A stretch of DNA of 33,953 bases from positions 1 through 33,953 of the IMG/VR virus record IMGVR_UViG_2534682338_000010; one strand, written 5' to 3'. Below, piece after piece: positions 3,242 to 33,668 of the stretch (position 1 is its first letter; the number at the start of each line of letters is the position of its first letter). Both the position numbers and the translations under genes were made by a program. The notes below the pieces were generated by a model, which ran no database searches, was not told the DNA's origin, and saw nothing but the letters and a program-made list of their open reading frames with translations. The stretch is from a virus (Duplodnaviria > Heunggongvirae > Uroviricota > Caudoviricetes).

Positions 3242-4741
3242 GTGGAACTAATGCAAGATATTAAAATTCATTTTCAAGATTACAGTTTCGTTAAGGTTGA
3301 TTGCTCTCCTTCTATCGGAATGGAATTAAGAGATTATTTCTCGTTTGAGGTTGAAGGGGCTAGGTTTAGCCCCCGTTACAAGTATTCTGGCTGGGATGGA
3401 CGAATAAGACTGTTTACGCATGAAAACACCCTACCAATTGGACTATTAAAAACGTTGGGTGTCTTTGTTAAAAATATGGGGTATTCAGTCTGGATTGACC
3501 CTAGATTGCTTGAGAAGGAAGATGTAACCAAAGACGCGATTAATGAATGGATTGATTCCTTAGAAGTGTATTCCGGTTCCAATAAAATCAATCCTTACTG
3601 GTATCAAAGGGAGGCAGTCTTTCAGGGTATTCATAATCGCCGTAGAATGCTGGTTCTTCCTACCAGTGCGGGTAAGTCATTGATTGCTTGTATGCTGTCT
3701 CGTTGGTACTTAGAGAACTACACCGGAAAAGTTCTAATCATTGTCCCTACTACATCGCTGGTGGTTCAAATGAGGGATGATTTTGTCGATTATAGGCTAT
3801 TCCCTTATGAAGCAATTCATACAATGATGAGTGGTAGCGGGAAACATCCGGGAGACAGGTTAATCACGGTTAGTACCTGGCAATCAGCTTGCAAGATGCC
3901 TCCTGAATGGTTCCGACAATATGGAATGTTGATAGTTGATGAATCACATAAGGCTAGTGCCAAAAATATTACCAATATCATTAACGGAATGAATCATTGT
4001 CAATTTAAGATCGGCATGACTGGTTCCCCGAAAGAATCAAAGTGCCATTTAATGCAGTATGTCGGGCTTTTCGGTGATATTTCTAAGATCGTGAGTATTG
4101 ACCGCCTGATGGAAGAAGGGCAGGTGACAAAACTGAAAATTAACTGTCTTTTCCTTCGTTATACCGATGAGGAATGTAGCGCGGTTAAGGGGAGAGAATA
4201 TGCGGAAGAGATCAAGTATATTACGTCTAACCCACGACGAAATAAGTTTGCTTGTAATTTGGCGCTAAAACTCGCTAAGAAGGGCGAAAACGTATTCCTG
4301 ATGTTCCGCAATACTAAGCACGGAAAACTTATGTATGATGCGTTACAGAAGGTACACGACAAGGTTTATTATATTGACGGTGGAGTTAAGACAGAAGAAC
4401 GTGATGAATTTAAGAAATTAGCGGAAGGGGAAACAGGGATCATTTGCGTTGCATCCTATGGTGTGTTCTCTACTGGTGTTTCAATTAAGAACTTGCACCA
4501 TGTTATTTTCGGTCATCCAGTGAAGGAATCAACTATCGTTCGTCAGAGTATCGGTCGTGCATTGCGTAAACATGGTTCTAAGGATATTGCAACGGTCTGG
4601 GATCTTATAGATCATCTGTGTATATTCGGTCGTAACGGAAAAGTCAAGCATAAAAATTATGCGGTAAAACATGCACTTGAGAGAATACGCTATTATCTAA
4701 CCGACAAGTTCAGCTATGCAACTAAAACAATTGCTATATAA
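3242..4741 (+). CDS. SF2 DExH helicase, UvsW-like (branch-migration/recombination helicase family)
   Basis: Walker A LPTSAGKS, motif II LIVDESH, motif VI QSIGRALRKHG; 499 aa; overall resemblance to T4 UvsW as recalled from memory. Confidence 0.8.
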   Translation: MELMQDIKIHFQDYSFVKVDCSPSIGMELRDYFSFEVEGARFSPRYKYSGWDGRIRLFTHENTLPIGLLKTLGVFVKNMGYSVWIDPRLLEKEDVTKDAINEWIDSLEVYSGSNKINPYWYQREAVFQGIHNRRRMLVLPTSAGKSLIACMLSRWYLENYTGKVLIIVPTTSLVVQMRDDFVDYRLFPYEAIHTMMSGSGKHPGDRLITVSTWQSACKMPPEWFRQYGMLIVDESHKASAKNITNIINGMNHCQFKIGMTGSPKESKCHLMQYVGLFGDISKIVSIDRLMEEGQVTKLKINCLFLRYTDEECSAVKGREYAEEIKYITSNPRRNKFACNLALKLAKKGENVFLMFRNTKHGKLMYDALQKVHDKVYYIDGGVKTEERDEFKKLAEGETGIICVASYGVFSTGVSIKNLHHVIFGHPVKESTIVRQSIGRALRKHGSKDIATVWDLIDHLCIFGRNGKVKHKNYAVKHALERIRYYLTDKFSYATKTIAI

Positions 4742-15449: not shown

Positions 15450-15956
15450 TTAAGAGATTTTCAAAGTCTGCTTAGTGCCAGTCTTCTTAATGTTGGTAAG
15501 GAAAGCAGCCGGAGGATTGCTTAACCAGTAGTAATGAAAACCACTTTGCATACTGTTATAAGGAACAGTGACAGCAGCACCACCCAAATTAACGGTTATA
15601 TTCCCCGCTCTACCATTCTGGAGATATACAGCCATAGTAGGAGTACCACCATTGAATTGACCAACGATAACGCCAATCAGACGCCCTACGCCCACGTTTT
15701 CGGGGTTCTCCATAGATCCTTTACCGCGCATGTCAGTTACTGGATAGTTTGAAGCAGTTACACCCCAGTTATTACCCAATGAAGTAGACCACGCAGCAGT
15801 AGCTACAACCGTATCCATACCACGACCACACATCGCACTCATGTTAGCTGGGCGACTAACCTTTAATGCGTTCATTGCTGCGCTCATCCATCGTTGACCA
15901 GTTACAGAAACAGCAGATGACCCGACCCAGCCAGGCTTATTAACGACATTCGCCAT
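15450..15956 (-). CDS. tail-associated structural protein (Gly/Asn-rich)
   Basis: 168-aa ORF; GGAG SD 8 nt upstream; follows the terminator after the putative tube gene. Confidence 0.5.
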   Translation of the reverse strand: MANVVNKPGWVGSSAVSVTGQRWMSAAMNALKVSRPANMSAMCGRGMDTVVATAAWSTSLGNNWGVTASNYPVTDMRGKGSMENPENVGVGRLIGVIVGQFNGGTPTMAVYLQNGRAGNITVNLGGAAVTVPYNSMQSGFHYYWLSNPPAAFLTNIKKTGTKQTLKIS

Positions 15957-16657: not shown

Positions 16658-19600
16658 TTATTTAGTTGCTTTCAGTTCGGCTAATTCAGCTTTAGTTTCG
16701 GCAAGTTCTTTAGCCATAGCATCAAACTTAGCGGTCATTTCCTGCATTGCTTTGATGATTAAAGCATTGACAGCAGAGTTAGAAATAGTCTTGATTGCTT
16801 CTGGATGTTCTGGATCTTCGGTGGATTGAATACCTACTGCTTCCGGCAATACTTTTTCCAGATCCTGAGCAATAATACCTACTTCGCGTTTAATCACCGT
16901 GTCATCGGAAAGAGATTTAACTTTATCGTAGGTGTAGACTTTCAGTGAGTTTACTTTCTCTAATGCGCCGTCCTGTAATTCTTCCTTGTTAATTTTCAAA
17001 CGGGAGTCGGAGCGAATGTAAACATCGTTAAACGAACCGTTACGACCTGCGGTAAAGTCACCAGCAGCGTTAAAGTCAAAAGTTGCATCGTGTACGTGCA
17101 TACGCACCATAGCATTTCCGATAGTACCGCTAGGAACATGTACACCCATTGCTGCGATATGATATTTACCTTGATGGGTTGCTTTCCATACGTTATGAGC
17201 GGAATCGGTTGATTGTTGACAGTCGACCTGAATACCAGAAGCACGATCACGCCAGCTAGTCCAACTACCGCCAGCAACAGAACCACGAATCAGACCATTA
17301 CCGCCACCGGAAACAGTACCCGTTTCAAGTTGAATCATCTTACCGCCGAATTTCCAGACTTCGGTTTGTTTCTCACCGCGCATACGCATAACGCCAGCAT
17401 CATCGCAGTACAACAGACCCAATTCTAAGCCATTTGGATCTCTAAACCACAAATGCTTATTGCCACTGCGACGAAACTCAATATCAGCACCGTTAAGCGT
17501 GATATTACCGCCAGTGTGAATTGCTTTAGGTTTAACAGTACCGTTGATGGCAAACTCGATTAATTCAGTACCCGGACCGCCCGGTCGTTGTGTGTACCAG
17601 TGCCAACCGCTTTCGTCCGCACATTCGAATACTTGTTTACGAGCATCAGCACCCCACGCACGGATATTAAAGCTAGAAGTAGCTGTATTTTTGCCCCACG
17701 TTAATTTTCCTTCGGTAGTTAAATCCCCTCGGAAATGAGCAAGTAAGCCACCAGTACCGTTACGTTCTGTAGTAAAGTGAGTTCCGCTAGTGTCCTGGAA
17801 TTGCAAAACGTTATATCGATTGGCATTACTATTCCCCCAATGGTTAATCGTAAAAGAATCCATCGACTGATTTCCACCAGCAGAGAAAGTAAGCAGTCCT
17901 TTTTCTAAGAATACATTGTTGCTAAAACGGGCAGCACGGCTATCTCTTTCAAGAACTAATGCACCTTCGTTACCATCACCGCCTAAAGTAACTTTACCGT
18001 TAGTCAAATCGTAAATGAACGGTCTGTTTCCATTCCATCCGCCCAATTTATCATTTTCGGCAGTAGAAAGAAGATAAACTTTACCACCGTCATTACGCCA
18101 GAATGCACCATAATTACCGTAGATCATGCGGTAGGCGTCGCTATTCATTGAGATGAATTGAGCGTTAGTATAAACTCGTTTTGTGTTACCGGTTGCAAGT
18201 TCGATCTGTCCGTCGATGTGGTGACGAATAGAAGTACCACCTACATCACTATACCATTCAAAAACGTTAGTATCAGCATTACCATAACCGATCCACCCTT
18301 GACGGGTAATAGATCCAGTACGATTATCTTGAAACGCAATATGGTTGGATTGACCAGCAGGACGCCGCAAGGTAATAACATTACTACCTCCACCCAACAT
18401 CATTCGACCAGAAAGAATATTACCTTTATGAGTCCCAGCAATAGAGCTACTAGATTCAACGGATAGAATCTCCTGAGCATCTGTACTACCCGTGGCGAGT
18501 CGATAAGTAGAACCCTGAACCGTCTCATGCCAGATCATTTCGTTATAGTTGCTACGGAATTTACGAATATATTTTCGTCCAGTACCTCTATCATTGCTTA
18601 GATGAACAATGTCATAGCTGTTTTGTGTATTGTCGTCAAAACTCAACACACCACGTTTATTTTCTGTGTTAAAAAGAGTTACGTTGCGACCACCGATAAC
18701 ACCAACGGAAGGTTTAATTAACGTGGCTTCCGGCGTATCATAAACCGTCAAACTTACATAAACAGATTTCCCATATTCGACAATGACGTTATCGGTATAA
18801 CGCTGATATTTCACGTAGATATCATAGTTATCACCGGAAGTATTGACAGCAAATACCTCAAAATCTTTGTTTGTATTTCTACGGTATGCAATTACGTTAA
18901 GACCTTTAGGTCTATCGTTACCACTACGGAGAAGAATTTCTACTACATCAACTTGGTCATATGCCGTAACGTTGTAACCATTACCACCATGAATACGGAA
19001 AAACACACTACGCCCGTTTTGTGGAATTGTTGCGGTTGCCAATTTGAAATATGCAGATACGTTTTCGCTAGAATTGGGAACAGACATAACGACGTTTTTA
19101 ACAAACATCTTATCAACTTCGGCTTTGGTGTATGCACCAATCTCGCCAGGAGTCGGCTTATCACCTTCGTGATACATCTTATAGCTAAAGTTCTTCTGTC
19201 CTTCTCTATCAAAACCATAGGTTTCAACACGAGATCCACCAGACGCATAACGGAAAGTAAATCCGCGACCGTGCGCTTTACCGGCAGAGTGAGGAACGTT
19301 AAGAGTTAGATCCATGAGTCCATCTTGACCATTGGTACGGAAAGCACCAAAGTAGTTAAGATCTCTCGCTGTCTGGTCTTCCAAATAGTTAGCTGTTTTG
19401 GTTAACAGATAGCCGTGATGGTAAGTGTTGGTATTCTTCTTGATGTAAGCAGCATCGGCACTACCTTCAATAGAATCAATTCGCTGGTTAGCTGCGGCAA
19501 TTGCGGCATCAGTAGAAGATTTATTCTGGTCTACCTTGTTGTTAATTGCTGTATGGTTGCTATTAACTGTCCCCGTAAGATTGGTGATCTTCGTGTCGGC

Positions 19601-20194
19601 ATCTTTCTTATTATCCGCTACCGTCTTTTCTATTGCTGATTTATTTGCTTCGACAGTATTCGTTAAGTTGGTAACGTTGGTATTCGTCTGATCAACCCGC
19701 GCATTAATATCTGTCTTGTTCTTGTTAATTGTCGCGTTGATAGTATCGCGGGTTGAAGTAATAGTCTGATTCAGTTCAGTCTTAGCAGCCGCCAGAGCGT
19801 TAGCAGCTTCGGTTTTATTGTTACCTACTGTGGTAGTCAAAGCATCAATTCGTTTGTTGGCTGCGGTATCGCCAGCAGTGATTGAAGCATTGAGAGTATC
19901 ACGGGTAGAAGTGATAGTCTGATTCAGTTCAGCTTTAGCACTAGCCAGATTATTAGCGGCTTCTTGTTTGTTGGAAGCAATAACACGGTCAGTGCTAGTT
20001 TTGTTATTGTCTACTTTCGTATTCAGTTCAGCGTGTTTTTCTGGAGAAACACTAATTTGGACTACGTTATTATTTTTGTCTTTGGTGTAAATCACATGAT
20101 CCGCCAACTGTAAGGCGATTTCACCCTGTGATAATTGTTCCGGCGTTGGTTTTTTACCCGCCGTCTGTGTGCGTTTAAATTGGATCGACTGCAT
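16658..20194 (-). CDS. fibre protein with coiled-coil repeat shaft and C-terminal intramolecular chaperone (S74-like autoproteolytic) domain
   Basis: 1178 aa; N-terminal repeated NQTITSTRDT-type heptad units; C-terminal DSRLKINKEEL...VYTYDK...GIIAQDLEKVLPEAV typical of self-cleaving fibre chaperone domains. Confidence 0.75.
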   Translation of the reverse strand: MQSIQFKRTQTAGKKPTPEQLSQGEIALQLADHVIYTKDKNNNVVQISVSPEKHAELNTKVDNNKTSTDRVIASNKQEAANNLASAKAELNQTITSTRDTLNASITAGDTAANKRIDALTTTVGNNKTEAANALAAAKTELNQTITSTRDTINATINKNKTDINARVDQTNTNVTNLTNTVEANKSAIEKTVADNKKDADTKITNLTGTVNSNHTAINNKVDQNKSSTDAAIAAANQRIDSIEGSADAAYIKKNTNTYHHGYLLTKTANYLEDQTARDLNYFGAFRTNGQDGLMDLTLNVPHSAGKAHGRGFTFRYASGGSRVETYGFDREGQKNFSYKMYHEGDKPTPGEIGAYTKAEVDKMFVKNVVMSVPNSSENVSAYFKLATATIPQNGRSVFFRIHGGNGYNVTAYDQVDVVEILLRSGNDRPKGLNVIAYRRNTNKDFEVFAVNTSGDNYDIYVKYQRYTDNVIVEYGKSVYVSLTVYDTPEATLIKPSVGVIGGRNVTLFNTENKRGVLSFDDNTQNSYDIVHLSNDRGTGRKYIRKFRSNYNEMIWHETVQGSTYRLATGSTDAQEILSVESSSSIAGTHKGNILSGRMMLGGGSNVITLRRPAGQSNHIAFQDNRTGSITRQGWIGYGNADTNVFEWYSDVGGTSIRHHIDGQIELATGNTKRVYTNAQFISMNSDAYRMIYGNYGAFWRNDGGKVYLLSTAENDKLGGWNGNRPFIYDLTNGKVTLGGDGNEGALVLERDSRAARFSNNVFLEKGLLTFSAGGNQSMDSFTINHWGNSNANRYNVLQFQDTSGTHFTTERNGTGGLLAHFRGDLTTEGKLTWGKNTATSSFNIRAWGADARKQVFECADESGWHWYTQRPGGPGTELIEFAINGTVKPKAIHTGGNITLNGADIEFRRSGNKHLWFRDPNGLELGLLYCDDAGVMRMRGEKQTEVWKFGGKMIQLETGTVSGGGNGLIRGSVAGGSWTSWRDRASGIQVDCQQSTDSAHNVWKATHQGKYHIAAMGVHVPSGTIGNAMVRMHVHDATFDFNAAGDFTAGRNGSFNDVYIRSDSRLKINKEELQDGALEKVNSLKVYTYDKVKSLSDDTVIKREVGIIAQDLEKVLPEAVGIQSTEDPEHPEAIKTISNSAVNALIIKAMQEMTAKFDAMAKELAETKAELAELKATK

Positions 20195-22002: not shown

Positions 22003-24006
22003 TCATTCAGCGGAGATGTGAAGAACTTTCAGAGCTTCCGGCTGAACTACGGTGAAGTCCAGGTCTACCCAGATACGCGGAACGATAGCAGACTGTGCGC
22101 GGTAAGTGGTGTCGTCCATATCCAGTTCCAGACCACCCCATTCACCGATCATGATACCGGAGAAATCACCCAGAACGATGTGGTCTGCCGGAATAACGCC
22201 AGAAGTAACTACATCGTAACCAGCCAGTTTGCCGTTTTCGATGATATAACCGGAAACGCCGTTATCTTTCAGGGTAGATTCCAGTTCAGCAGCAGTTGCA
22301 CCGCTCATTGCAAACTTGATGGACTGTGCCGGAACGCCAGCGTCGGTCAGTGCTGCAATTTCTTTCAGGAAGTCTTTGTAGCTAAAAGCGGCTTTCTTAG
22401 TAACGCGACCACCGTCTACCAGTTGCTTAACCAGACCTTTCGGACCTCGAGTATTATCTTTGTCAGACAGAATCAGTTGTTCCAGTTTGATGCGAACAGC
22501 TTTGTTAATATGATCAGTGATCAGGGTAGCAATATTCGGAACAGTTTTCAGAGACTGACGGCTGATCGGGTTGCCACCAGCAAACGTCTTAGGAGCCATT
22601 TTCACGTTTGCAAATTCAGCTTTGCTTTCCGGTGCAGCACCGTTTTCATCAACGAAACCGAAAGCATCAACGCTGGAAGTAGTCATTTTCGGTACAGCAA
22701 TCGGAGCATTCAGACCAGACAGAACAGTCACACCCAGACGACCCAGAACAGACTGCGGAAGCAGCATTTCTACATAGGATTCGGTCAGCAGTTTTTCGTC
22801 GGTTACAGCAGTCAGAGTAGCTTTGGTGTTACCATCAGCAGCAGCACGCAGAGCAGCAGCCGGAACGAATACAGAGCCACCGCGAGCAGCACGACCACGC
22901 TGCATTGCAGCACCAGCAGCCATTGCAGAAAACTCGGCTTCGTTAGCACCCAGAGCTTCACCATCTACCAGGGAGCGAATTACGTTGTTCAGGTCAAAAG
23001 TTTTTTCCATTTTAGAGTCCTTAATTTGTTCGTTATTACGTTGAGCAGTAGCGATTTTATTTAGTGTCTTAGTGCGGAATGCTTCCGGCGTCATGTCTTT
23101 AATTGCTAATGCGCGTTTCAATTCTTCGTCATCAATATTTAGTTCGCGTGCAATTTCGCGAATTTCTAATTCATCTTCTTCGGAACGTTCAGCCACTTCC
23201 TCGGTTTTTTCTTCTTCATCCGGAGCGGCTTCACGTTCTTCTTTTACTTCTTCTGCTTCCCGAACAGTTGAACTATCATCATCAACACTTTCAGGATGTT
23301 CAGCGTCTTTTCCGTCTTCGAGATTTTCATCTTCTTTATTCTCTTCAACTTGGCGCTCTTGAGTTTCTTCAACTTCCGGTTCTTTATTTTCTTCTACCGG
23401 AGTTTCTTCAACCTGAGCGGATTCTTGTTCTTCTTTGATTTCTTCGATTTGTTCTTTAGTCATATCGCGTTTAGCCTCCAAATTAACTGTGATAGTATTT
23501 AGAGAGCGATTTAAACCGACAGAATCATCGGCAGGGACCGTCACAAATGAAATTTCAAAAGGCGCCCACTTAGTAACAATCAATTGCCCTTTGGTGTAGT
23601 CGATGTGATATTCTTTAATGTCATAACCGACAGAAATTTTTTCCATCGTACCTTCAATGACTTTATTGCGAATATCATTAGCCAAAGTGCCATGCTTAGA
23701 GAATTTAACCAGAGCACGACCTACGTTATCCGCATCGATTCGAGCGTTACAAACGACACCAATATGATTATCGAAATTATGATTGAACAGCAACGGAGCG
23801 TTATTATTCAGACGGGACAGATCAACCGCTTCCGGTGTATGTACCAGAATTTCATCTAATACCACCATTTCTTGATTTTGCTCATCCCAGAATTGGCGCT
23901 GATAAGGCTGTTCACTGGAGAAAGCAATTTCAAATTCGTATTGATCGTTATGCCCTTCGTTAATAACTCCACCGTAACCGTTAAGATCGCGGCGAAATTT
24001 AAGCAT
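22003..24006 (-). CDS. prohead protease / acidic scaffold (delta-like) / HK97-fold major capsid protein fusion
   Basis: 667 aa: N-terminal about 170 aa protease-like (ends EISFVTVPAD), about 150 aa extremely Glu-rich linker, C-terminal about 330 aa capsid-like. Confidence 0.75.
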   Translation of the reverse strand: MLKFRRDLNGYGGVINEGHNDQYEFEIAFSSEQPYQRQFWDEQNQEMVVLDEILVHTPEAVDLSRLNNNAPLLFNHNFDNHIGVVCNARIDADNVGRALVKFSKHGTLANDIRNKVIEGTMEKISVGYDIKEYHIDYTKGQLIVTKWAPFEISFVTVPADDSVGLNRSLNTITVNLEAKRDMTKEQIEEIKEEQESAQVEETPVEENKEPEVEETQERQVEENKEDENLEDGKDAEHPESVDDDSSTVREAEEVKEEREAAPDEEEKTEEVAERSEEDELEIREIARELNIDDEELKRALAIKDMTPEAFRTKTLNKIATAQRNNEQIKDSKMEKTFDLNNVIRSLVDGEALGANEAEFSAMAAGAAMQRGRAARGGSVFVPAAALRAAADGNTKATLTAVTDEKLLTESYVEMLLPQSVLGRLGVTVLSGLNAPIAVPKMTTSSVDAFGFVDENGAAPESKAEFANVKMAPKTFAGGNPISRQSLKTVPNIATLITDHINKAVRIKLEQLILSDKDNTRGPKGLVKQLVDGGRVTKKAAFSYKDFLKEIAALTDAGVPAQSIKFAMSGATAAELESTLKDNGVSGYIIENGKLAGYDVVTSGVIPADHIVLGDFSGIMIGEWGGLELDMDDTTYRAQSAIVPRIWVDLDFTVVQPEALKVLHISAE

Positions 24007-26143: not shown

Positions 26144-28048
26144 TTAGAACGATGTTACCCAGCTACGGCCTCTATTTGGGCGTCTGGCGATGTTTTTACG
26201 TTGTGGTCGTGTGATTGGCTTATTTTCTTCGATTTGCTCGTCAGATTGCGATTTAGGAGCTTCTACGGGTTCTTCTGGTTCACGGTTCAAACTATCTTTG
26301 ATGGCTTCGAGTTTTTCCCATGACATTTTATTGAGTACATGGCGAGAAGCAGCATAGGAATAAGCCAGGCAGTCGAGAGCCTCGTTTCGTTGCTGACCAA
26401 CTTTTACCCAACGTGTGGTATTACCCTGCCGTTTCAACTGTTCAGAAAGCAATTGCTCGCAATAGTCATCAGGAACGTCACCAATCTGGAAGACAGTGTG
26501 AGGATCGCCATCTCTCAAGTTCCGGTTAATCATTTCACGGATCATCGTTTTAAGGTTGTTTACGCCCAGAATTTTAAGGGTAAAACCACCCGTTCTTGTG
26601 TCTTTTACCGGAAGGATTGGTGCATCAACATTGCTTGCGCCTTTAATGGCGGTTAGATTTTGCCACCGACTACAGAATCGGTAGATCACTTGCGTAGCTC
26701 GTCCGTTCGATGAGTCCACGAAAGCAGATAGCATCGGGATTCGTTCACCGGATCGGGTATAGAATTTCGCTTTCAGGAAGTTATAAAGCTGGTCATATGC
26801 TGGTGATTCGTGGCGTTCGCAGTTCACATCATAGAATGATCGGTGATCAACTACGCATAGACCTTTACGAGAAATACCCAGCAAGGTAGATTCCAGACGG
26901 TCTTTTTGCTGGTCAACTCCACCTACCAGAGCCAGTACATCATCAGGAATATTGTCTAGGCTAATATCAGTTTTCAGCGTTTCCAGTTCGTCGGCTGTGC
27001 GGTCTTCGTTAAGATCATCGAAGGTTTCACCGAGGACTGTATTGTAGAACGTTGCCAGGGACATATTCGCGTAGCTATCAGCAAAGTCCACCACACACGC
27101 ACGGATAGAACTAAACGGAGACATAAGGCGGTTAGCATGAAAACCGATTACTTCCGCATTTGGTTCGGTGGCGACCCATTCTCCCTTAGCAACAGCACGT
27201 AGGCGATCCCCTTCGGTCCAGTCGGTTTCACATTCAGGACAACGATAAACGGCTGTATCTGGGTTGGGTAATGATTTACCGTTAATCGTATGCCAATCGA
27301 AATGTACGTTACTCCATTCCATTACGTGCTTGTGTCCGCAATGCTGGCAAACGACATGATATTTTCTCTTATCCGAGAGTTCCCATTGTTGGTTAATCGC
27401 CCCATCACGAGCGGTTGGAGTGGAAGCAATTACGATCCTTGCATCTTCCCCGAAAGTGGTTGCGCGTTGTTCCGCTAGCTGGATCGGGTTCCCTTCGTCT
27501 GACTCATCAGCCGCATCAACTTCATCAAGAATAATCAAAGGGAGTGTTTTACCGCGAAGATGTGACGGACTATTCAACGACATGAAATACATAAACGATC
27601 CGTTACGAAGCTGAATAATCGATGAGTTGTTAACGGCATTGCGATCTGATTTGTCGGTGATCATCGCCTTTAATTCTGGCGTTGCCTCTAATACTGGCTT
27701 CACCTTACCAGCGATCCAAGAATTTAGTTCCCTAACGTTACTTTGCAACACCCCGATATTAGTAGGGTTACTCGCGATCCGATGGAAGATAATTCCGTTA
27801 AGAATCATGGTCTTACCCAACTGTGCCGAACATTTAAACACAATTTTTCTACGGTCTTCGGTGATCGCGTCCATCATTCCACGTTGGAAGGGATGCAATT
27901 TAATTAGAGATCCGGCTTTAACACCATCGGTAGCAACTACGTTAGCCTCTACCCACTCGCTAGGTTTCATTGCTTTAGGTGGGCGAATTGCAGCAGAGAT
28001 ATTTCTGAGAATCTTTTTTAATTTTGCCTTATTAGAAATCAGTTTCAT
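26144..28048 (-). CDS. terminase large subunit, lambda GpA-type
   Basis: 634 aa; Walker A KCSAQLGKT; acidic ILDEVDAADESDEG (Walker B-like); Cys/His cluster CQHCGHKH...CPECE as in GpA-family terminases. Confidence 0.85.
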   Translation of the reverse strand: MKLISNKAKLKKILRNISAAIRPPKAMKPSEWVEANVVATDGVKAGSLIKLHPFQRGMMDAITEDRRKIVFKCSAQLGKTMILNGIIFHRIASNPTNIGVLQSNVRELNSWIAGKVKPVLEATPELKAMITDKSDRNAVNNSSIIQLRNGSFMYFMSLNSPSHLRGKTLPLIILDEVDAADESDEGNPIQLAEQRATTFGEDARIVIASTPTARDGAINQQWELSDKRKYHVVCQHCGHKHVMEWSNVHFDWHTINGKSLPNPDTAVYRCPECETDWTEGDRLRAVAKGEWVATEPNAEVIGFHANRLMSPFSSIRACVVDFADSYANMSLATFYNTVLGETFDDLNEDRTADELETLKTDISLDNIPDDVLALVGGVDQQKDRLESTLLGISRKGLCVVDHRSFYDVNCERHESPAYDQLYNFLKAKFYTRSGERIPMLSAFVDSSNGRATQVIYRFCSRWQNLTAIKGASNVDAPILPVKDTRTGGFTLKILGVNNLKTMIREMINRNLRDGDPHTVFQIGDVPDDYCEQLLSEQLKRQGNTTRWVKVGQQRNEALDCLAYSYAASRHVLNKMSWEKLEAIKDSLNREPEEPVEAPKSQSDEQIEENKPITRPQRKNIARRPNRGRSWVTSF

Positions 28049-28135: not shown

Positions 28136-28741
28136 ATGCTAATTAATCAGCAACAAAGAGATGAATTAAAATTAGCCTTTTCTTGTTGTACCGATCATGA
28201 ATATCGTTTGCCAGTAAAACATAAGCACTTAAAGACTGATTACACAACATCCGGGTTTAGCCGTGAGGAAGCGAAAGAGATTTTAATAGAATTTTACCGT
28301 GATAATGGTTATACAGACGTTCACAACTTCTTTAAGAAACATAGAACATCACATACAGAGTTTCGGAGAGTCCGAGATTGGTTTGATTTTGATATCAAGC
28401 GTTATTATCGCATTGATGACGGTCCTATCTATCGGTTGCAGTGGAAGCCGATCCGAGAAGTGTTGAAACAGACAAGGGATAGTATGGCTGTCACAATGCC
28501 ACGTAACATAGCTTTTAAGAAAGGATATGGTGATACAAGGGAACTATTCGTTGAACTCGCTAACGTGAAGTACAGCCACTATTACAACGATCCTAAGTCC
28601 TTCTTTGAAGTGCTTCGCAAGGTTGATATTAGTCGGGGTACATATTATTCACGGTTGAAGAAGTACGGGATTAAGGCAGAGTTCTTTATGTCGGTTGACG
28701 ATGGAGAACTTTTTCCGATAAAATGTAAGTCCTCTAAATAA
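28136..28741 (+). CDS. hypothetical protein with C-terminal small DNA-binding (HTH-like) domain
   Basis: 201 aa; C-terminal segment ISRGTYYSRLKKYGIKAEF resembles the two small paralogs at 28777 and 32146. Confidence 0.6.
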   Translation: MLINQQQRDELKLAFSCCTDHEYRLPVKHKHLKTDYTTSGFSREEAKEILIEFYRDNGYTDVHNFFKKHRTSHTEFRRVRDWFDFDIKRYYRIDDGPIYRLQWKPIREVLKQTRDSMAVTMPRNIAFKKGYGDTRELFVELANVKYSHYYNDPKSFFEVLRKVDISRGTYYSRLKKYGIKAEFFMSVDDGELFPIKCKSSK

Positions 28742-29151: not shown

Positions 29152-29967
29152 TTACAGTCCGAAGACTTCCAGTGATCCAACATTCTGACGGAGACGTTCA
29201 GCCGCTTTATTTTGAATCAGAATAGTGTTATTTGGCTGCGGTAGTTTAAGAGTTGCTTTCTGTTCTTCTTCCAAAACGCCCAATTCAACCAGCACCGGAA
29301 GCACATCAACAGTAAACTCAAGTTGGTAGTGAGCATTCATGCGGCAGAAAGACAGAGAAGAGTCATTAGCAACATACCCACACGGCTTGTTATTTTCATC
29401 ATAGACGCGCTCAATGTATCCAGCAGTACGCAAGGCCGTCAGTGCTTCTTTAACCTTCGTAGCGCCCTTTTTAGCGCCTAACAGACGCGTCATTGAATGG
29501 CTATCTACAGACTTACGAACATGAAGTTCAATCAGCTTTTTGTTTTCGCGAGTTTTCTTTAATGCCAGTTCGATCCAGTCTGTTTCTTCAAAGTCTGCAT
29601 ACGGGTTAACAGCTAAACGTTCCTGACGCAGTTTTTCATTTTCTTCTTTCAGTCGTTTCCATTCCTGAATAACAACCATTCGACGCTTAACATCGTAACC
29701 AGTAACAAGAGTCAGCGTAAGTTCTTCGTCAAGGTGATATTCGGTTTGTTCACGTCCATATTGGTCAAAAAAGATGCGTCCAAATTTGGACTCATCTAAT
29801 TCAAGAGAAGTAAGCATAGTTTTAATATCACGTTTAACATGCTTATGTTCTTTTCCGGTAAATTCAGCGATCTGACGGGAAGACATGGTCAGCGGTTTGG
29901 TGTTATCAACAACCAGAGACACGGAAGCAGTTTTAACAGCAGTATTCATAGTAGTAACAGTATTCAT
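29152..29967 (-). CDS. Rha-family phage regulatory protein
   Basis: N-terminal LTMSSRQIAEFTGKEHKHVKRDIKTM matches the conserved Rha motif; likely start at the first ATG of an 18-bp tandem duplication. Confidence 0.7.
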   Translation of the reverse strand: MNTVTTMNTAVKTASVSLVVDNTKPLTMSSRQIAEFTGKEHKHVKRDIKTMLTSLELDESKFGRIFFDQYGREQTEYHLDEELTLTLVTGYDVKRRMVVIQEWKRLKEENEKLRQERLAVNPYADFEETDWIELALKKTRENKKLIELHVRKSVDSHSMTRLLGAKKGATKVKEALTALRTAGYIERVYDENNKPCGYVANDSSLSFCRMNAHYQLEFTVDVLPVLVELGVLEEEQKATLKLPQPNNTILIQNKAAERLRQNVGSLEVFGL

Positions 29968-29976
29968 AGTAGTAAT
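29941..29976. repeat. perfect-but-one 18-bp tandem duplication at the start of the Rha gene
   Basis: AGTATTCATAGTAGTAAC followed by AGTATTCATAGTAGTAAT; encodes MNTVTT-MNT on the minus strand. Confidence 0.8.
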
Positions 29977-30063
29977 TCCCCTTAAACGGTTTTGCGATAA
30001 TGATATTGGTCCTCCTAGTTCCGGCATCACCACCGGAACAATTTTATTTATAATAGAAATTTA

Positions 30064-30396
30064 TCACCAATCGATTTCTACTTGGTCTTCTTCATAATAA
30101 GGAATCGCATATTCATAACGCCAGTTTTCGATGATTTCACGTTCTTCATTAGTAAGAAGGTGATTGTTAACTGGAGTCGCATTGTGATTACCAGCTTCGA
30201 ATTGCTCGCGAACTTCCAGCATTGCATGAATACCAGTTAAGGACATCAGATCAAACGGAACATGCATACTACGGGAGATAGTTTCACGGGATACGCCCCA
30301 ATCATTTTCTACATGGCTAGGGGTTACAGAAACGGTTTTGCCGGAGATTTTAACAGTCCAGTCATACAGGGATTTAGTGATGGTAAATTCTTTCAT
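30064..30396 (-). CDS. hypothetical protein
   Basis: 110 aa; AGAGGA SD; driven by a near-consensus promoter just upstream. Confidence 0.6.
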   Translation of the reverse strand: MKEFTITKSLYDWTVKISGKTVSVTPSHVENDWGVSRETISRSMHVPFDLMSLTGIHAMLEVREQFEAGNHNATPVNNHLLTNEEREIIENWRYEYAIPYYEEDQVEIDW

Positions 30397-30517: not shown

Positions 30518-30985
30518 TTACAGCATATCTAAGCCTTCATCGTAACCGTAGAAGCCATTCTGAGAAGAGAAACAGATTGGAGCGTAGTCGTCGTCATCTT
30601 CGTCTTGTTCATCGCGTTCTGGTGCTTTCTGAGCGGTTTCTTTGCCGTAGTTAAACATTGCTTCATCCAGTTCATAGACAGTAACGAAGCTACCTAAATC
30701 AATGTCATAATCACGGACTTCGAAAGGCAGGTCATCACGAACAATGATTGCTGGAATGTTCTGGTATTTCAGGCGGTCTTCATCGGTGAAGCAGTTAACA
30801 ACAATGGTCGGCTTCTTATTACGGCAAAACGCATAACATGCACTAGAGAAATGGGATTCATCGGAATTGAAAAGGATGTTATAACCACGTTCACGGAACA
30901 TCTTCATTAACTTGTCATTGTGGAAGCTATCAGCATCAAAACCTAACAGGATGAAAGGAGTAGTGGTAGTCATTTTATGGTTCAT
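30518..30985 (-). CDS. hypothetical early protein with strongly acidic C-terminal region
   Basis: 155 aa; AGAGGA SD 8 nt upstream; C-terminal ERDEQDEDDDDY. Confidence 0.6.
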   Translation of the reverse strand: MNHKMTTTTPFILLGFDADSFHNDKLMKMFRERGYNILFNSDESHFSSACYAFCRNKKPTIVVNCFTDEDRLKYQNIPAIIVRDDLPFEVRDYDIDLGSFVTVYELDEAMFNYGKETAQKAPERDEQDEDDDDYAPICFSSQNGFYGYDEGLDML

Positions 30986-31388
30986 AGTGGAAATCCTCTA
31001 AAAGAAAGTGAATCAAAGTAATTCTGATATTATTTATAAGAGAAAATTCTTGATGATTTTGGAAGGGATTGTTACTCACTTCGTTCGTTTACTAGAATCA
31101 GTTATCATCTGGTATTAAATCCCTTTCTAAGAAAATCCTTTCAAAAGTGATTCTCGATGCCACGCAGTGGCGTCGCAGACGTTTGGGAGTGAGCGAAGCG
31201 AGCGAGCAAACTAGTTAATTCCTTCTAAGATCATCTAGTTTAAATTAGTGTTACTAGAAGTAATTGGTTAGCGCTTCGCGCAGTCGGGCTACGCCCTCCT
31301 AATATCTTTTTGGTTATTTGTTGTTTTTGGTTTTACACATGAGCGTAGCGAATGTGTTATATAATATCTATGCACGCCCGATTCCCCG

Positions 31389-31630
31389 TTTTGCCCCTCA
31401 CTAAGTTAATGTTTTATAAAGAGTTTTTCTCACAAATCCTTTTCGGGGGCAAATTTCAGGGGCAAAAATTAGATTTTCAGGGGCAATTATTGGCATTTCA
31501 GGGGCAAAAATGAGGGGCAAAATCACTGTTTCCCAGAATTTCAGGGGCAAAAATAGTAGGTTTCAGGGGCAAAAATGGGATGTGGAATCTAGGGGATTTT
31601 GGTTCAGGGGCAAAATTCGGGGGCAATTTT
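31389..31630 (+). repeat. iteron-like array: 9 direct copies and 1 inverted copy of GGGGCAA(A/T)
   Basis: direct copies starting at 31445, 31459, 31480, 31501, 31514, 31544, 31566, 31607, 31619; inverted copy at 31389-31397; several have the extended form TTTCAGGGGCAAAAAT. Confidence 0.8.
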
Positions 31631-31667
31631 CATAGTGTAGGGCTAGTGTAGGTTTGAAAATCCTTTG

Positions 31668-31696
31668 TTGACACTGTGTAGGATCGGTGGTATACT
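31668..31696 (+). promoter_or_regulatory. near-consensus sigma70 promoter P1
   Basis: TTGACA (31668-31673), 17-nt spacer, TATACT (31691-31696). Confidence 0.55.
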
Positions 31697-31724
31697 TGAA
31701 AATTCGAGATAAATATTTTATAAT
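31696..31724 (+). promoter_or_regulatory. near-consensus sigma70 promoter P2 (tandem with P1)
   Basis: TTGAAA (31696-31701), 17-nt spacer, TATAAT (31719-31724). Confidence 0.55.
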
Positions 31725-32145
31725 ATTTGTATTGAAAGTGAAAATTTACCGATTTTCCTTCCTATTGTTATCACCGTGTTAAATTGTTATATGTCTGTGA
31801 AGATTTGGATCTGAGAGAAAATCTTGTAACAAATCTTTACAATTCATAGCTCAATTAATGCTCACCGCTTTAGCAAAAAGTGCTATGCCTTTTTCTAAAT
31901 TGATTGAATATACATCAATTTGGTTAAATCGTGTTCTTCGCTTTAGCAATTCGTGCTGTGGTTTAACACATTTAACACGTCTGATAACATCTGAATAACA
32001 TTTTAACATATCTCTGTTATAAATACATATATAAGAGATAAATGTGAGGGGTTGAAAAATAAAATACAATCCCCATATAAATAATAGTGAGCGGTTAACG
32101 CTCTTTTTTAAGAAATCATTAATCCACATTGTAGGAGGATTCGAG

Positions 32146-32328
32146 ATGGCACGACCTGTTAAGTTCACTCGCGAAATCATCTTAGAAATGGCTAAACGCT
32201 ACTTTGAGTTAACGCCGGGTGTGAGAATTGAAGAGTGGTTTAAAAATGAGGGCATCGATAAATCAACCTTTCATAAACTGCTAAAACGATATGACATTAA
32301 AGTGAAGATTGAAGCTACCGTTTGGTAA
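32146..32328 (+). CDS. small DNA-binding protein (paralog of the 28777 gene)
   Basis: 60 aa MARPVKFTREIILEMAKRYFELTPGV...; AGGAGGA SD 6 nt upstream. Confidence 0.65.
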   Translation: MARPVKFTREIILEMAKRYFELTPGVRIEEWFKNEGIDKSTFHKLLKRYDIKVKIEATVW

Positions 32329-32442
32329 TCAACTTTGACTGAGAATTATATGATGGCTTTAAAAAAGAAAAAGCCTCCCTTGTTGCAGCAAAGGAGGCTT
32401 GAAATGAACAATTAAAACTAACTTTCCACAGGAGTATTTATA

Positions 32443-33384
32443 ATGTTATTTTCCGCTAACTTTTTCACTAACGAAGTAACCAACGCTAAAGCAGTTATCA
32501 AATTTGGCACCGAAGCAAACAAGAAGATTCAGCCGAAAGTTGTTGCTCATGTTTCCTTTGCGCAGCAGAAATCCGCCTTCGCTGGCTTTAAAGCACATCG
32601 TGAAGCACTGATCGCGGCTGGCTTTGGTGTTGACGGTAAACTGCCTAACGGCATTCGTAAAGCAATCGACCGCGTTAAACCTGCTAAAGACGTTGCAGTA
32701 GACCACATCGTTACTTTTACCGTTAAGAACTCTTCTGAACTGTTCCACCTGGTTATTGCTGGTGATACTGCTATCGTTTCCGCTCCTAACATGGATTTTC
32801 AGGATACCGCTGATTGCCAGATCACCTTCGGTCGTCGTAAAGAAGTTACCGGAAAAGCTAAACTGAACTTCACTAAATCTGGCAATCCTTACTTTGCTGT
32901 TTTCTTTAACAGCCACGCTACCGAAAAAGAAGTTGTAGAACTGGTTGCTTATGAAGGTGAAGAGAAAGAACGTATTGAATCTTGCGAAGCATTTCTGGAA
33001 CTGGAAGCACAGGTGAATGCTGTTTCTCCGGTTGTTGAAGATCGCTTTGCTGCACTGGAAGCACAGATCGCAGAACTGAAAGCTGCACTGGAAGAAAAAG
33101 ACCAGATTATCGAAGCACAGAAAGCTGAGATTGAAGAACTGAAAGCTAAAGAAGTTGCTCCGGTAGCAGTAGTTGAAAACGCGGCTGATGAGGCCGCAAA
33201 TGATGAAGTAGAAGTGAAAATCGATGTGATGCGTGATCCGATGGCTGCACTGCAATTACTTCGTTCTTTTAAGGGCAAATCTCATTTTTCTAGTGATGTA
33301 GAAGATGAGGAAGAAGAACAGAAACGCAATGCTGCAATGCTTCATGATGAAATGTACGGTACTAACTTTTCTTACTGCCAATAA
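32443..33384 (+). CDS. abundant early-type protein with central coiled coil and acidic C-terminal region
   Basis: 313 aa; codon usage strongly skewed to high-expression codons (CTG, GAA, AAA, CGT, GGT); coiled-coil segment LEAQIAELKAALEEKDQIIEAQKAEIEELKAKE. Confidence 0.7.
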   Translation: MLFSANFFTNEVTNAKAVIKFGTEANKKIQPKVVAHVSFAQQKSAFAGFKAHREALIAAGFGVDGKLPNGIRKAIDRVKPAKDVAVDHIVTFTVKNSSELFHLVIAGDTAIVSAPNMDFQDTADCQITFGRRKEVTGKAKLNFTKSGNPYFAVFFNSHATEKEVVELVAYEGEEKERIESCEAFLELEAQVNAVSPVVEDRFAALEAQIAELKAALEEKDQIIEAQKAEIEELKAKEVAPVAVVENAADEAANDEVEVKIDVMRDPMAALQLLRSFKGKSHFSSDVEDEEEEQKRNAAMLHDEMYGTNFSYCQ

Positions 33385-33668
33385 AAAAAGGGACTCCGAA
33401 GAGTCCCTAGTAAGTTTAGGTTAGGTTTGCGCAACAAAGATGAGGTTATAATGAACATAATGCTACATTATTCTTTAAAGCCAGAAAAATAACCGCCCCC
33501 GAAGGGGCGGGAGGATTAATACTCAATCTATACTTGTTATGTTTTTATGTTGTATAGTCACTGACTATGAAAACACTGTACTGAATGTGTTTTATGGCTT
33601 TTAATCGGGAACTCTCTTTCGAAAGCCCCCTGTTAAAACCACATAAGGAGAAATGGCAGATTACAATA

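Follow-up and report, generated by a model that had tools for sequence, protein, structure and literature searches.

A highly codon-adapted, modular orphan protein encoded in the control region of a common Escherichia coli prophage

The Rep proteins of iteron plasmids and the O protein of lambda are initiators of low abundance, and specificity modules are swapped among lambdoid O proteins. The repressor c of phage Mu possesses an N-terminal DNA-binding domain, a central leucine zipper and a C-terminal regulatory tail, with many operators lying between divergent promoters. Short phased repeats are typical of the sites of small terminase subunits (TerS), such as the R sites of lambda cosB and the hexamers of P1 pac, and the ORF6N domain is regarded as DNA-binding. 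In the immI region of phage P22, ant is controlled by the mnt and arc repressors together with the sar antisense RNA (PMC2629481, PMC13397905). Here we describe a gene of an Escherichia coli prophage, termed gene X, which resembles each of these systems in part. Gene X lies in IMG/VR record IMGVR_UViG_2534682338_000010, of which positions 1 to 33,953 (33,953 nucleotides, hereafter the window) were analysed. The window comprises nearly all of a ~35 kb prophage with hicB as its insertion site; among 5426 complete E. coli genomes, 63 carry this prophage. An identical X protein, labelled 'hypothetical' every time, occurs on over 1000 contigs of E. coli and Shigella.

Codon adaptation and domain structure of protein X

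Gene X encodes 313 amino acids (aa) between an ATG start codon and a TAA stop codon (Table 1). A preliminary description, made from the sequence alone, had considered its codon choice to be more biased towards high-expression codons than that of the structural genes. Codon adaptation index (CAI) values were calculated with weights derived from the 5185 codons of a reference set of 30 E. coli K-12 genes, those for ribosomal proteins together with tufA, fusA and rpoA, a scale on which the reference ribosomal genes score 0.55-0.84 and ordinary chromosomal genes 0.29-0.54. Gene X yielded a CAI of 0.721, ranking first among the 35 open reading frames (ORFs) of the window, the remaining 34 having a mean of 0.43 with a standard deviation of 0.11. 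The protease-capsid fusion (0.623) and the tail tube (0.618) both scored lower, as did the neighbouring 60-aa and 94-aa genes at 0.39 and 0.38, and the bias first noticed by eye is therefore upheld by formal calculation. The effective number of codons (Nc, after Wright) was 35.3, the lowest among window ORFs of at least 100 aa. A gene annotated 'gap' in locus L001 (beside cybB and aldA; probably gapC, not gapA) had a CAI of 0.41 and was left out as a high-expression control.

A null distribution was obtained by holding the protein sequence fixed and resampling synonymous codons 1000 times from the prophage's own usage. The resampled CAI was 0.496 ± 0.025, which places gene X at z = 9.2, and none of the 1000 resamples equalled or exceeded the observed value. 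The bias is distributed unevenly along the gene, with values of 0.69-0.80 over codons 1-250 and 0.54 over codons 251-300, the last ~60 codons being less adapted. The orthologue in locus L018, with 50% amino acid identity, has a CAI of 0.79 and is the top-scoring gene of its own locus; other orthologues yielded 0.71, 0.72 and 0.66 (Salmonella range 0.66-0.72). Across 15 E. coli alleles the ratio of non-synonymous to synonymous substitution rates (dN/dS) was 0-0.14, and a long ORF on the opposite strand proved on translation to be low-complexity junk. X is a real protein under strong purifying selection. Its codon adaptation is real, reproducible and conserved, and the gene is built for very high expression. 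Given that the 60-aa partner in the same operon shows no such adaptation, the demand is specific to X. The further step taken in the preliminary description, that the product is very abundant, is a reasonable one and is strengthened by the bias of the orthologues, the optimal ribosome-binding site (RBS) and the near-consensus promoters described below.

The protein is composed of a basic head, a coiled coil or zipper and an acidic tail. The N-terminal domain has an isoelectric point of 9.75 and a net charge of +8, and the remainder of the protein is acidic. An AlphaFold2 (AF2) model built from a ten-sequence alignment, usable for the head and zipper only, had a predicted local distance difference test score (pLDDT) of ~80-90 at residues 30-115; the model from the single sequence had a pLDDT of 46 and was of no use. 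The head of the former yielded no fold match, with no OB, Rad52-like or winged-helix match among the results. Both the coiled-coil middle and the acidic C-terminal region of the preliminary description were recovered, the Pfam matches to the former being of zipper type only. The acidic stretch EDEEEE occupies residues 287-292 and so is not at the extreme C-terminus, the protein ending ...MYGTNFSYCQ. Relatives carry an alternative tail unrelated to that of X (...WNKYL..KKNG...RKAA). No signal peptide or membrane segment was apparent when the sequence was judged by eye.

Searches of X against Pfam, PHROGs, NCBIfam, PADLOC and PDB sequence profiles yielded coiled-coil noise only, in agreement with the earlier statement that no motif is recognised. 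The sole PADLOC match was to LmuB at coiled-coil level (E = 0.004), and the weak PHROG matches were to scaffold-like coiled-coil segments of head proteins (E ~0.006-0.009). X had no match to Rep_3 in Pfam and no Nu1 or helix-turn-helix (HTH) signal, and no match to Bro-N/ANT (KilAC) or Rha domains was found in any member with an X-type head. RecT/Red-beta, Erf and Rad52/Sak domains, a Rad52-like fold and a single-strand DNA-binding (SSB) domain were likewise not found in X. A single-strand binding or annealing factor had been among the functions suggested at the outset. None of the 13 family members matched SSB, RecT, Erf, Rad52 or Sak models, and the DNA associated with the gene is a sequence-specific duplex repeat array, so this idea is unsupported. 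The functional interpretation offered in the preliminary description thus stands in part; X may yet be a stoichiometric factor associated with DNA, or a protein of host-takeover or anti-repressor type. Comparison of X with the capsid/scaffold region of the same phage led to the rejection of any similarity between them.

An exhaustive search of 1.84 billion cluster representatives recovered two other full-length X clusters only, and a search seeded with P0128, the most divergent cluster, added members from Salmonella, Providencia and Proteus. Two further proteins from the representative search, P0130 and P0132, were rejected as repeat-protein noise. Word-indexed protein searches using X and an N-domain profile yielded near-identical E. 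coli copies only, and scans of GTDB representative genomes, IMG/VR and metagenomes for the family gave no new lineages. Judged from sequence, X is a member of a tiny and modular family of Enterobacterales prophages, in which ten members share the X head, three carry other heads and two unrelated tails occur. The Proteus and Providencia heads were rejected as divergent homologues of the X head (hhalign probability 0.5%). The first ~8 codons of the gene (32443-32470; F-x-x-N-[FIV]-[FH]) are kept even in these proteins with otherwise unrelated heads, and the start of the gene may thus be constrained either as a nucleotide sequence or as a peptide. The metagenomic protein P0131 joins an ORF6N head to a near-identical X zipper and the alternative tail, and matches PHROG 'anti-repressor' families at 1e-33. 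X is an orphan modular protein of a prophage lineage that is common yet unstudied.

The operon, its control region and the repeat array

Gene X is the second cistron of a conserved operon in the central control region of the prophage. In every lineage with enough flanking sequence the gene order is GpA terminase, Rha, a gene of 150-220 aa (minus strand), 1.2-1.6 kb of non-coding DNA, an HTH gene of 59 or 60 aa (plus strand), X and a gene of 175-185 aa (minus strand). Loci of divergent homologues were retrieved from Salmonella, Proteus, Providencia and further assemblies, 13 in total, and X directly follows the 59/60-aa gene in every one of them, even where the head has been replaced. Wherever the contig reaches, the non-coding DNA upstream of the 59/60-aa gene carries a repeat array.

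Table 1. Positions in the window of gene X, the segments of its product and the elements of its control region.
Feature	Position	Strand	Basis
Array of nine direct and one inverted TTCAGGGGCAAAA repeats; spacings 13, 21, 21, 13, 30, 22, 41, 13 nt	31391..31628	+	Sequence
Three (A/T)GTGTAGG repeats, one within the spacer of the first promoter	31634..31683	+	Sequence
Two tandem near-consensus sigma-70 promoters (TTGACA-17-TATACT, TTGAAA-17-TATAAT)	31668..31724	+	11/12 each
Two CTTTAGCA-N5-TGCT hairpin motifs in the ~420-nt leader	31866..31957	+	Regular expression across loci
Terminator-like hairpin and T-run of the leader, ~35 nt upstream of the 60-aa gene	32089..32109	+	Terminator scan
60-aa HTH protein, first cistron of the operon	32146..32328	+	Weak HTH_Tnp_1, E = 0.003; CAI 0.39
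Conserved small ORF MMALKKKKPPLLQQRRLEMNN, overlapping the intergenic hairpin	32350..32415	+	Translation
Intergenic hairpin, a minus-strand intrinsic terminator; 12-bp stem and U5CU6; AAGGAGG in the plus-strand 3' arm	32371..32400	-	Scan
RBS AGGAG and 8-nt AU-rich spacer TATTTATA	32430..32442	+	Read from sequence
Gene X, highly codon-adapted	32443..33384	+	ORF, CAI, resampling, dN/dS
N-terminal domain of X (residues 1-~172), basic, alpha/beta then 7-strand beta-meander	32443..32958	+	Charge, AF2
Coiled coil/zipper of X (residues 182-236)	32986..33150	+	AF2, one long helix; Pfam ZapB, SlyX, DivIC, TSC22, PKcGMP_CC
Acidic exchangeable C-terminal module of X (residues 237-313)	33151..33381	+	Net charge -11, CAI 0.54
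Two more terminator-like hairpins just downstream of X	33389-33408, 33493-33510	-	Scan

The sequence TTGACA-N17-TATAAT/TATACT occurs at the position corresponding to the promoters in L018, L024 and L175. The GTGTAGG repeat inside the promoter spacer looks like an operator, and the same motif constitutes the main array in the Providencia locus L022. The CTTTAGCA-N5-TGCT motif of the leader was present in one or two copies in six of ten lineages searched (the window, L024, L175, L025, L026 and L027); a boxA-like CGCTTTA precedes these motifs. The leader hairpin, of the form GAGCG-loop-CGCTC-T5-7, was kept in all ten lineages (T6 in the window). This arrangement suggests that the leader is subject to read-through or antitermination control, or is itself a ~400-nt RNA product.

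Two terminators lie between the promoters and X, that of the leader and the intergenic minus-strand hairpin. The latter has a fold energy of -19 to -22.5 kcal/mol, is situated 43 nt upstream of the X ATG and is kept in ten lineages with compensatory changes at some pairs. The small ORF that overlaps it has 15-21 codons, begins M-A/T-L-K and is present in all lineages read. Hairpin and small ORF may represent the end of a sar-like antisense RNA or a translational coupling device; no minus-strand promoter for an antisense RNA passed the promoter scan. The sequence AGGAGTATTTATA-ATG at the start of X is kept in nine of ten lineages. A search of Rfam over 30.9-33.95 kb found nothing.

Ten of the 14 GGGGCAA heptamers in the window fall within the array. 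The arrays of relatives at the same position use GGGGCAAA, CACGGACAAAA, CTAGGGAT or AGTGTAGG, that of CTAGGGAT comprising 12 copies at 11/22-nt spacing. The repeats of L020 and L022 are spaced at 11/22 nt and those of the window at 13/21/22 nt, which is iteron-like, and AT-rich stretches are located at 31400-31440 and 31700-31760. Three perfect DnaA boxes (TTATCCACA) are present in L018 (9692-9859) and L182 (4690-4857), within a ~210-nt insertion between the 60-aa gene and X. When IMG/VR was scanned for the repeats, a single 15-mer gave chance matches only and the G-type pattern led back to the E. coli prophage already known and to nothing else; the two-repeat C-type pattern matched one coding repeat, which was rejected as coincidental. 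GC-rich palindromes occur at 31142-31363 (GATGCCAC-GCA-GTGGCGTC, GCGC-TTC-GCGC, GGGC-TAC-GCCC and GAGCG(A/T)AGCGA repeats), interspersed with CTTCTAGAA-like repeats. These palindromes are 65-75% conserved across lineages, two pairs showing compensatory changes between the window and L018/L024, and could be cosN, a structured RNA or protein-binding sites.

Pairwise protein identities were compared across 8-10 loci, which represent four motif classes only. The class of the X N-domain follows the repeat motif, with pairs sharing a motif at least 52% identical and pairs with different motifs at most 42-44% identical. The 60-aa, 155-aa, Rha and 201-aa proteins do not follow the motif, nor does the C-terminus of X itself, and the 60-aa protein is 87% identical between the window and L024 despite their different repeats. 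Nucleotide profiles confirm that the mosaicism is real: no segment is better conserved than the 60-aa gene when the window is compared with L024, and none is less conserved when it is compared with L027. The diverged homologous head of L024 (41% identity) is paired with a related repeat, TTCAcGGaCAAAA as against TTCAgGGgCAAAA, 2 of 13 positions being different.

The repeat motif is followed just as cleanly by a 185-aa TerS-like protein, which is encoded on the minus strand ~0.6 kb to the right of the window end (22998-23555 of L001). This protein combines an N-terminal HTH with a coiled coil and an acidic tail. Among its top matches to PDB profiles were lambda Nu1 (1j9i) and two other small-terminase N-domains, all weak (E ~0.2-0.9), and three of seven orthologues matched Pfam Phage_Nu1, with one matching HTH_17. 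The residues of the recognition helix differ by motif class. No TerS gene adjoins that of the large terminase subunit (TerL). Some 6.5 kb and the whole control region lie between the 185-aa gene and that of the GpA large terminase (26144-28048), an unusual terminase split; X lies 4.4 kb from TerL on the opposite strand.

The X head and the TerS-like protein disagree in one lineage, L174/L175 (Salmonella Livingstone GCA_009283865.1). Positions 1-3600 of L175 (Salmonella Livingstone) represent a natural recombinant, which is C-class and L024-like from the 60-aa gene through X (78-98% nucleotide identity) and G-class and L018-like over the TerS-like gene (82-97%), with the breakpoint at ~2220-2460, between X and the TerS-like gene. 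The DNA beside the array in L174/L175 resembles neither class.

Gene content of the prophage

The prophage encodes a large serine recombinase, a UvsW-like helicase, an endolysin, a gpJ-like tip protein and a T-even-like gp37/gp38 fibre, in addition to an S78-protease-capsid fusion, a lambda-type portal and a GpA terminase. The prophage has no cultured relative, the closest cultured phage exhibiting a terminase identity of only 43%. Searches of a phage collection with X and its region, at the nucleotide level and by tblastn, gave no matches, and the tail-fibre gene is the only one of the prophage to match known phages there. Almost none of the non-structural genes has any family match, and a literature search on this prophage (hicB, serine recombinase) yielded nothing relevant.

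The 667-aa major capsid protein (22003-24006, minus strand; CAI 0.62, Nc 38.2) is a fusion of Peptidase_S78 and Phage_capsid, and scaffold and protease functions are therefore probably built in. The segments 3242-4741, 15450-15956 and 16658-20194 encode between them the T4-type UvsW helicase (UvsW_N, E = 2e-34), the T-even-like gp37 distal fibre and the gp38 adhesin, the gp37 distal fibre having ~80% nucleotide identity to RB49-group phages. This temperate prophage with a lambda-like head is a mosaic of temperate and T-even gene pools.

A 201-aa ORF (28136-28741, plus strand) is transcribed against the flanking late genes. Residues 121-187 of its product resemble the 59/60-aa HTH protein of the X operon (33-37% identity), and it is a candidate regulator or repressor. 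A Rha/Ant-like protein is encoded at 29152-30033. The first two genes of the divergent operon, of 155 aa (30518-30985) and 110 aa (30064-30396), both on the minus strand, have CAI values of 0.64 and 0.62, at the level of the capsid. Neither product matched a family in Pfam, PHROGs or PADLOC, and NCBIfam, searched with the 155-aa protein only, likewise gave none. X itself lies ~1.7 kb from the junction of prophage and chromosome and is non-structural by position.

Possible roles of X and comparison with known systems

The strongest expression signature in the element, combined with a position in the control region, indicates that X is probably central to phage replication or switching. The reading that we favour, with a probability of roughly 0.3, is that X is an abundant array-binding organiser, possibly origin-binding or initiator-like. 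The basic head would be a sequence-specific double-stranded DNA-binding domain reading the ~10 adjacent phased TTCAGGGGCAAAA repeats, the zipper would pair the heads and the acidic tail would recruit a partner protein, much as in lambda O and the Rep proteins of iteron plasmids. On this view the high codon adaptation would allow ~10 sites on each of many genome copies to be loaded quickly and stoichiometrically. Such a role is suggested by the layout, in which direct repeats are followed by a promoter and then by the gene, and by the lack of any other recognisable initiator in the phage, which has only a UvsW-like helicase. It is further favoured by the expression signature, the conserved synteny, the tracking of the repeat motif by the head class, the basic character of the head, the iteron-like spacing, the DnaA boxes of L018/L182 and the fusion, in P0131, of zipper and tail to an ORF6N domain.

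Several observations weigh against an initiator-like organiser. We infer the binding of the array by a head in which no DNA-binding fold is recognisable. The covariation spans only four motif classes, could owe something to physical linkage, and is shared by the 185-aa Nu1/TerS-like protein, for which there is a strong prior for reading arrays. In the one lineage where the two proteins part company, the contigs of both assemblies end at the array edge, leaving the array unreadable. DnaA boxes are confined to the L018/L182 sub-lineage, the window having a single relaxed box. The scarcity of known initiators is hard to reconcile with a CAI that exceeds the value for the capsid, and ~10 sites per genome create no obvious need for expression at the level of ribosomal proteins. 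Why X should be more codon-adapted than the capsid is explained by none of the hypotheses considered here.

X might instead be an Ant-like effector, an anti-repressor or host-takeover protein, produced in a burst upon release of the operon, that titrates a repressor or an abundant host protein, the array being read by another protein and the head and tail acting as exchangeable target-recognition modules. This is the main rival reading, though a tentative one. The succession of strong promoter, small DNA-binding gene and ~300-aa product parallels P22 immI, and the conserved minus-strand terminator before the X ATG would be expected for a sar-like antisense RNA over the RBS. The zipper and tail recur in the ORF6N protein that matches 'anti-repressor' families, stoichiometric action would suit the high codon adaptation, and the swapping of modules at both ends would suit an arms-race protein. 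X is also near the prophage end, with an AbiTii gene close by in L022. However, homology of X to Ant or to KilAC, Bro-N and Rha domains is lacking, the promoter scan gave no convincing minus-strand candidate for the antisense RNA, the phage already possesses a Rha/Ant-like protein, and the tracking of the repeat motif by head class would be left unexplained. Proximity to the junction, the Abi gene of one relative and the variability of both protein ends are equally features of a moron, that is, a defence/exclusion or host-fitness factor expressed from the lysogen and abundant in uninduced cells; the hairpins that flank X on both sides and a host-like codon usage far above that of its neighbours point the same way. 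We nevertheless regard a moron as unlikely, since X matched no known defence system in PADLOC, appears to lack a signal peptide or membrane segment, and has not been inserted independently, holding a fixed operon position in every lineage and being gated by the leader terminator.

The array could alternatively be a cosB- or pac-like packaging site read by the 185-aa protein, X being either a packaging accessory that co-evolves with TerS or with the site, or a protein unrelated in function to the array. The HTH, coiled coil and acidic tail of that protein, its weak Nu1/TerS matches, its separation of the motif classes and the absence of a TerS gene beside TerL are in keeping with this, and the adjacent GC-rich palindromes could be cosN. 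It is rather improbable all the same: the TerS assignment is weak, the same HTH type occurring in excisionases and one orthologue matching HTH_17, X separates its gene from the array, ~2.4 kb away, the pairing of X with the TerS-like protein is broken in natural recombinants, and the extreme codon adaptation of X finds no explanation. X might also be a virion or assembly protein needed at capsid-like stoichiometry (a scaffold, decoration or head fibre), anchored by its head with the coiled coil as a stalk. Its CAI equals or exceeds that of capsid and tail tube, a stalk with exchangeable ends is fibre-like and the weak PHROG matches are scaffold-like, but X is not part of the morphogenetic operon, being encoded on the other strand in an operon with an HTH gene, and the capsid gene, to whose product X is dissimilar, already has the S78 protease and delta region; moreover, X has a basic head, and its zipper and tail are also found fused to an ORF6N domain. 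A virion role is accordingly quite unlikely. Least probable, and by our estimate very unlikely, is a single-strand DNA-binding or annealing protein. High expression together with an acidic C-terminal region characterises T4 gp32 and T7 gp2.5, and a UvsW-like helicase is present. Signals of SSB, RecT, Erf, Rad52 or Sak were absent from the 13 members and from PHROGs, no OB or Rad52-like fold was matched, a 55-residue zipper is atypical of SSB or annealing families, and the acidic stretch is away from the extreme C-terminus.

Returning to the array-binding organiser, a bolder version that we put forward only as a conjecture is that X may be the first of a new class of abundant 'head-zipper-tail' phage proteins. 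An unseen DNA-binding fold would read the phased array, the exchange of head and tail cassettes along with the array would redirect either the initiation of replication or the lysis-lysogeny switch within an uncultured lineage of Enterobacterales prophages, and the leader terminator and a sar-like antisense RNA would act as the gate. If the X head does bind the repeats, a new DNA-binding fold would be at hand, and the variants of head and site (GGGGCAAA, CGGACAAA, CTAGGGAT and GTGTAGG) would be usable for studies of specificity or as orthogonal DNA-binding parts. It would also help to explain how replication starts in a minimal temperate phage with only a UvsW-like helicase. If X is Ant-like, it would be a new and abundant player in induction or host takeover. 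The prophage is common, yet its non-structural genes are almost all without annotation, and outliers in codon adaptation are a useful guide to which 'hypothetical' prophage genes to study first.

Among known systems, the small terminase Nu1 of lambda resembles X in its coiled coil, acidic tail, short repeats and DNA-binding head, the last a putative property of X. X differs from it in having no HTH and in not being beside TerL, and the 185-aa protein nearby is the better Nu1-like candidate. The order of head, zipper and tail and the repeated sites recall Mu c, to which X has no homology; Mu c is not highly expressed, and the X array lies upstream of the promoters without overlapping them. The ORF6N, Rha and KilA-N regulators likewise have an N-terminal head that a linker joins to a variable C-terminal domain, and P0131 joins both types of protein, although the X head is unlike ORF6N, Rha, Bro-N and KilA-N by Pfam and has a different predicted fold.

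The immI region of P22 (mnt, Pant, arc, sar, ant) shares with the X operon a strong promoter, a small DNA-binding gene and a protein of ~300 aa, as well as an intercistronic terminator on the opposite strand over the RBS (PMC2629481, PMC13397905) and a variable, moron-like region. The X operon differs in lacking homology to Ant or Arc and an identified antisense promoter, in having a repeat array upstream and in its genome position. Compared with the iteron initiators (the plasmid Rep proteins of P1, F and pSC101, and lambda O), X has no Rep_3 or winged-helix fold, possesses a long zipper and exhibits very high codon adaptation where initiators are normally scarce; at the locus, DnaA boxes occur in one sub-lineage, and the 60-aa gene and a terminator intervene between promoter and gene. 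The iteron initiators are nevertheless similar to X in being proteins of ~300 aa whose gene adjoins phased direct repeats, with a promoter just beyond the array, and in the exchange of specificity modules among relatives seen for lambdoid O proteins; they comprise an N-terminal part that reads the sites and a C-terminal part that recruits partners, as the head and tail of X are proposed to do.

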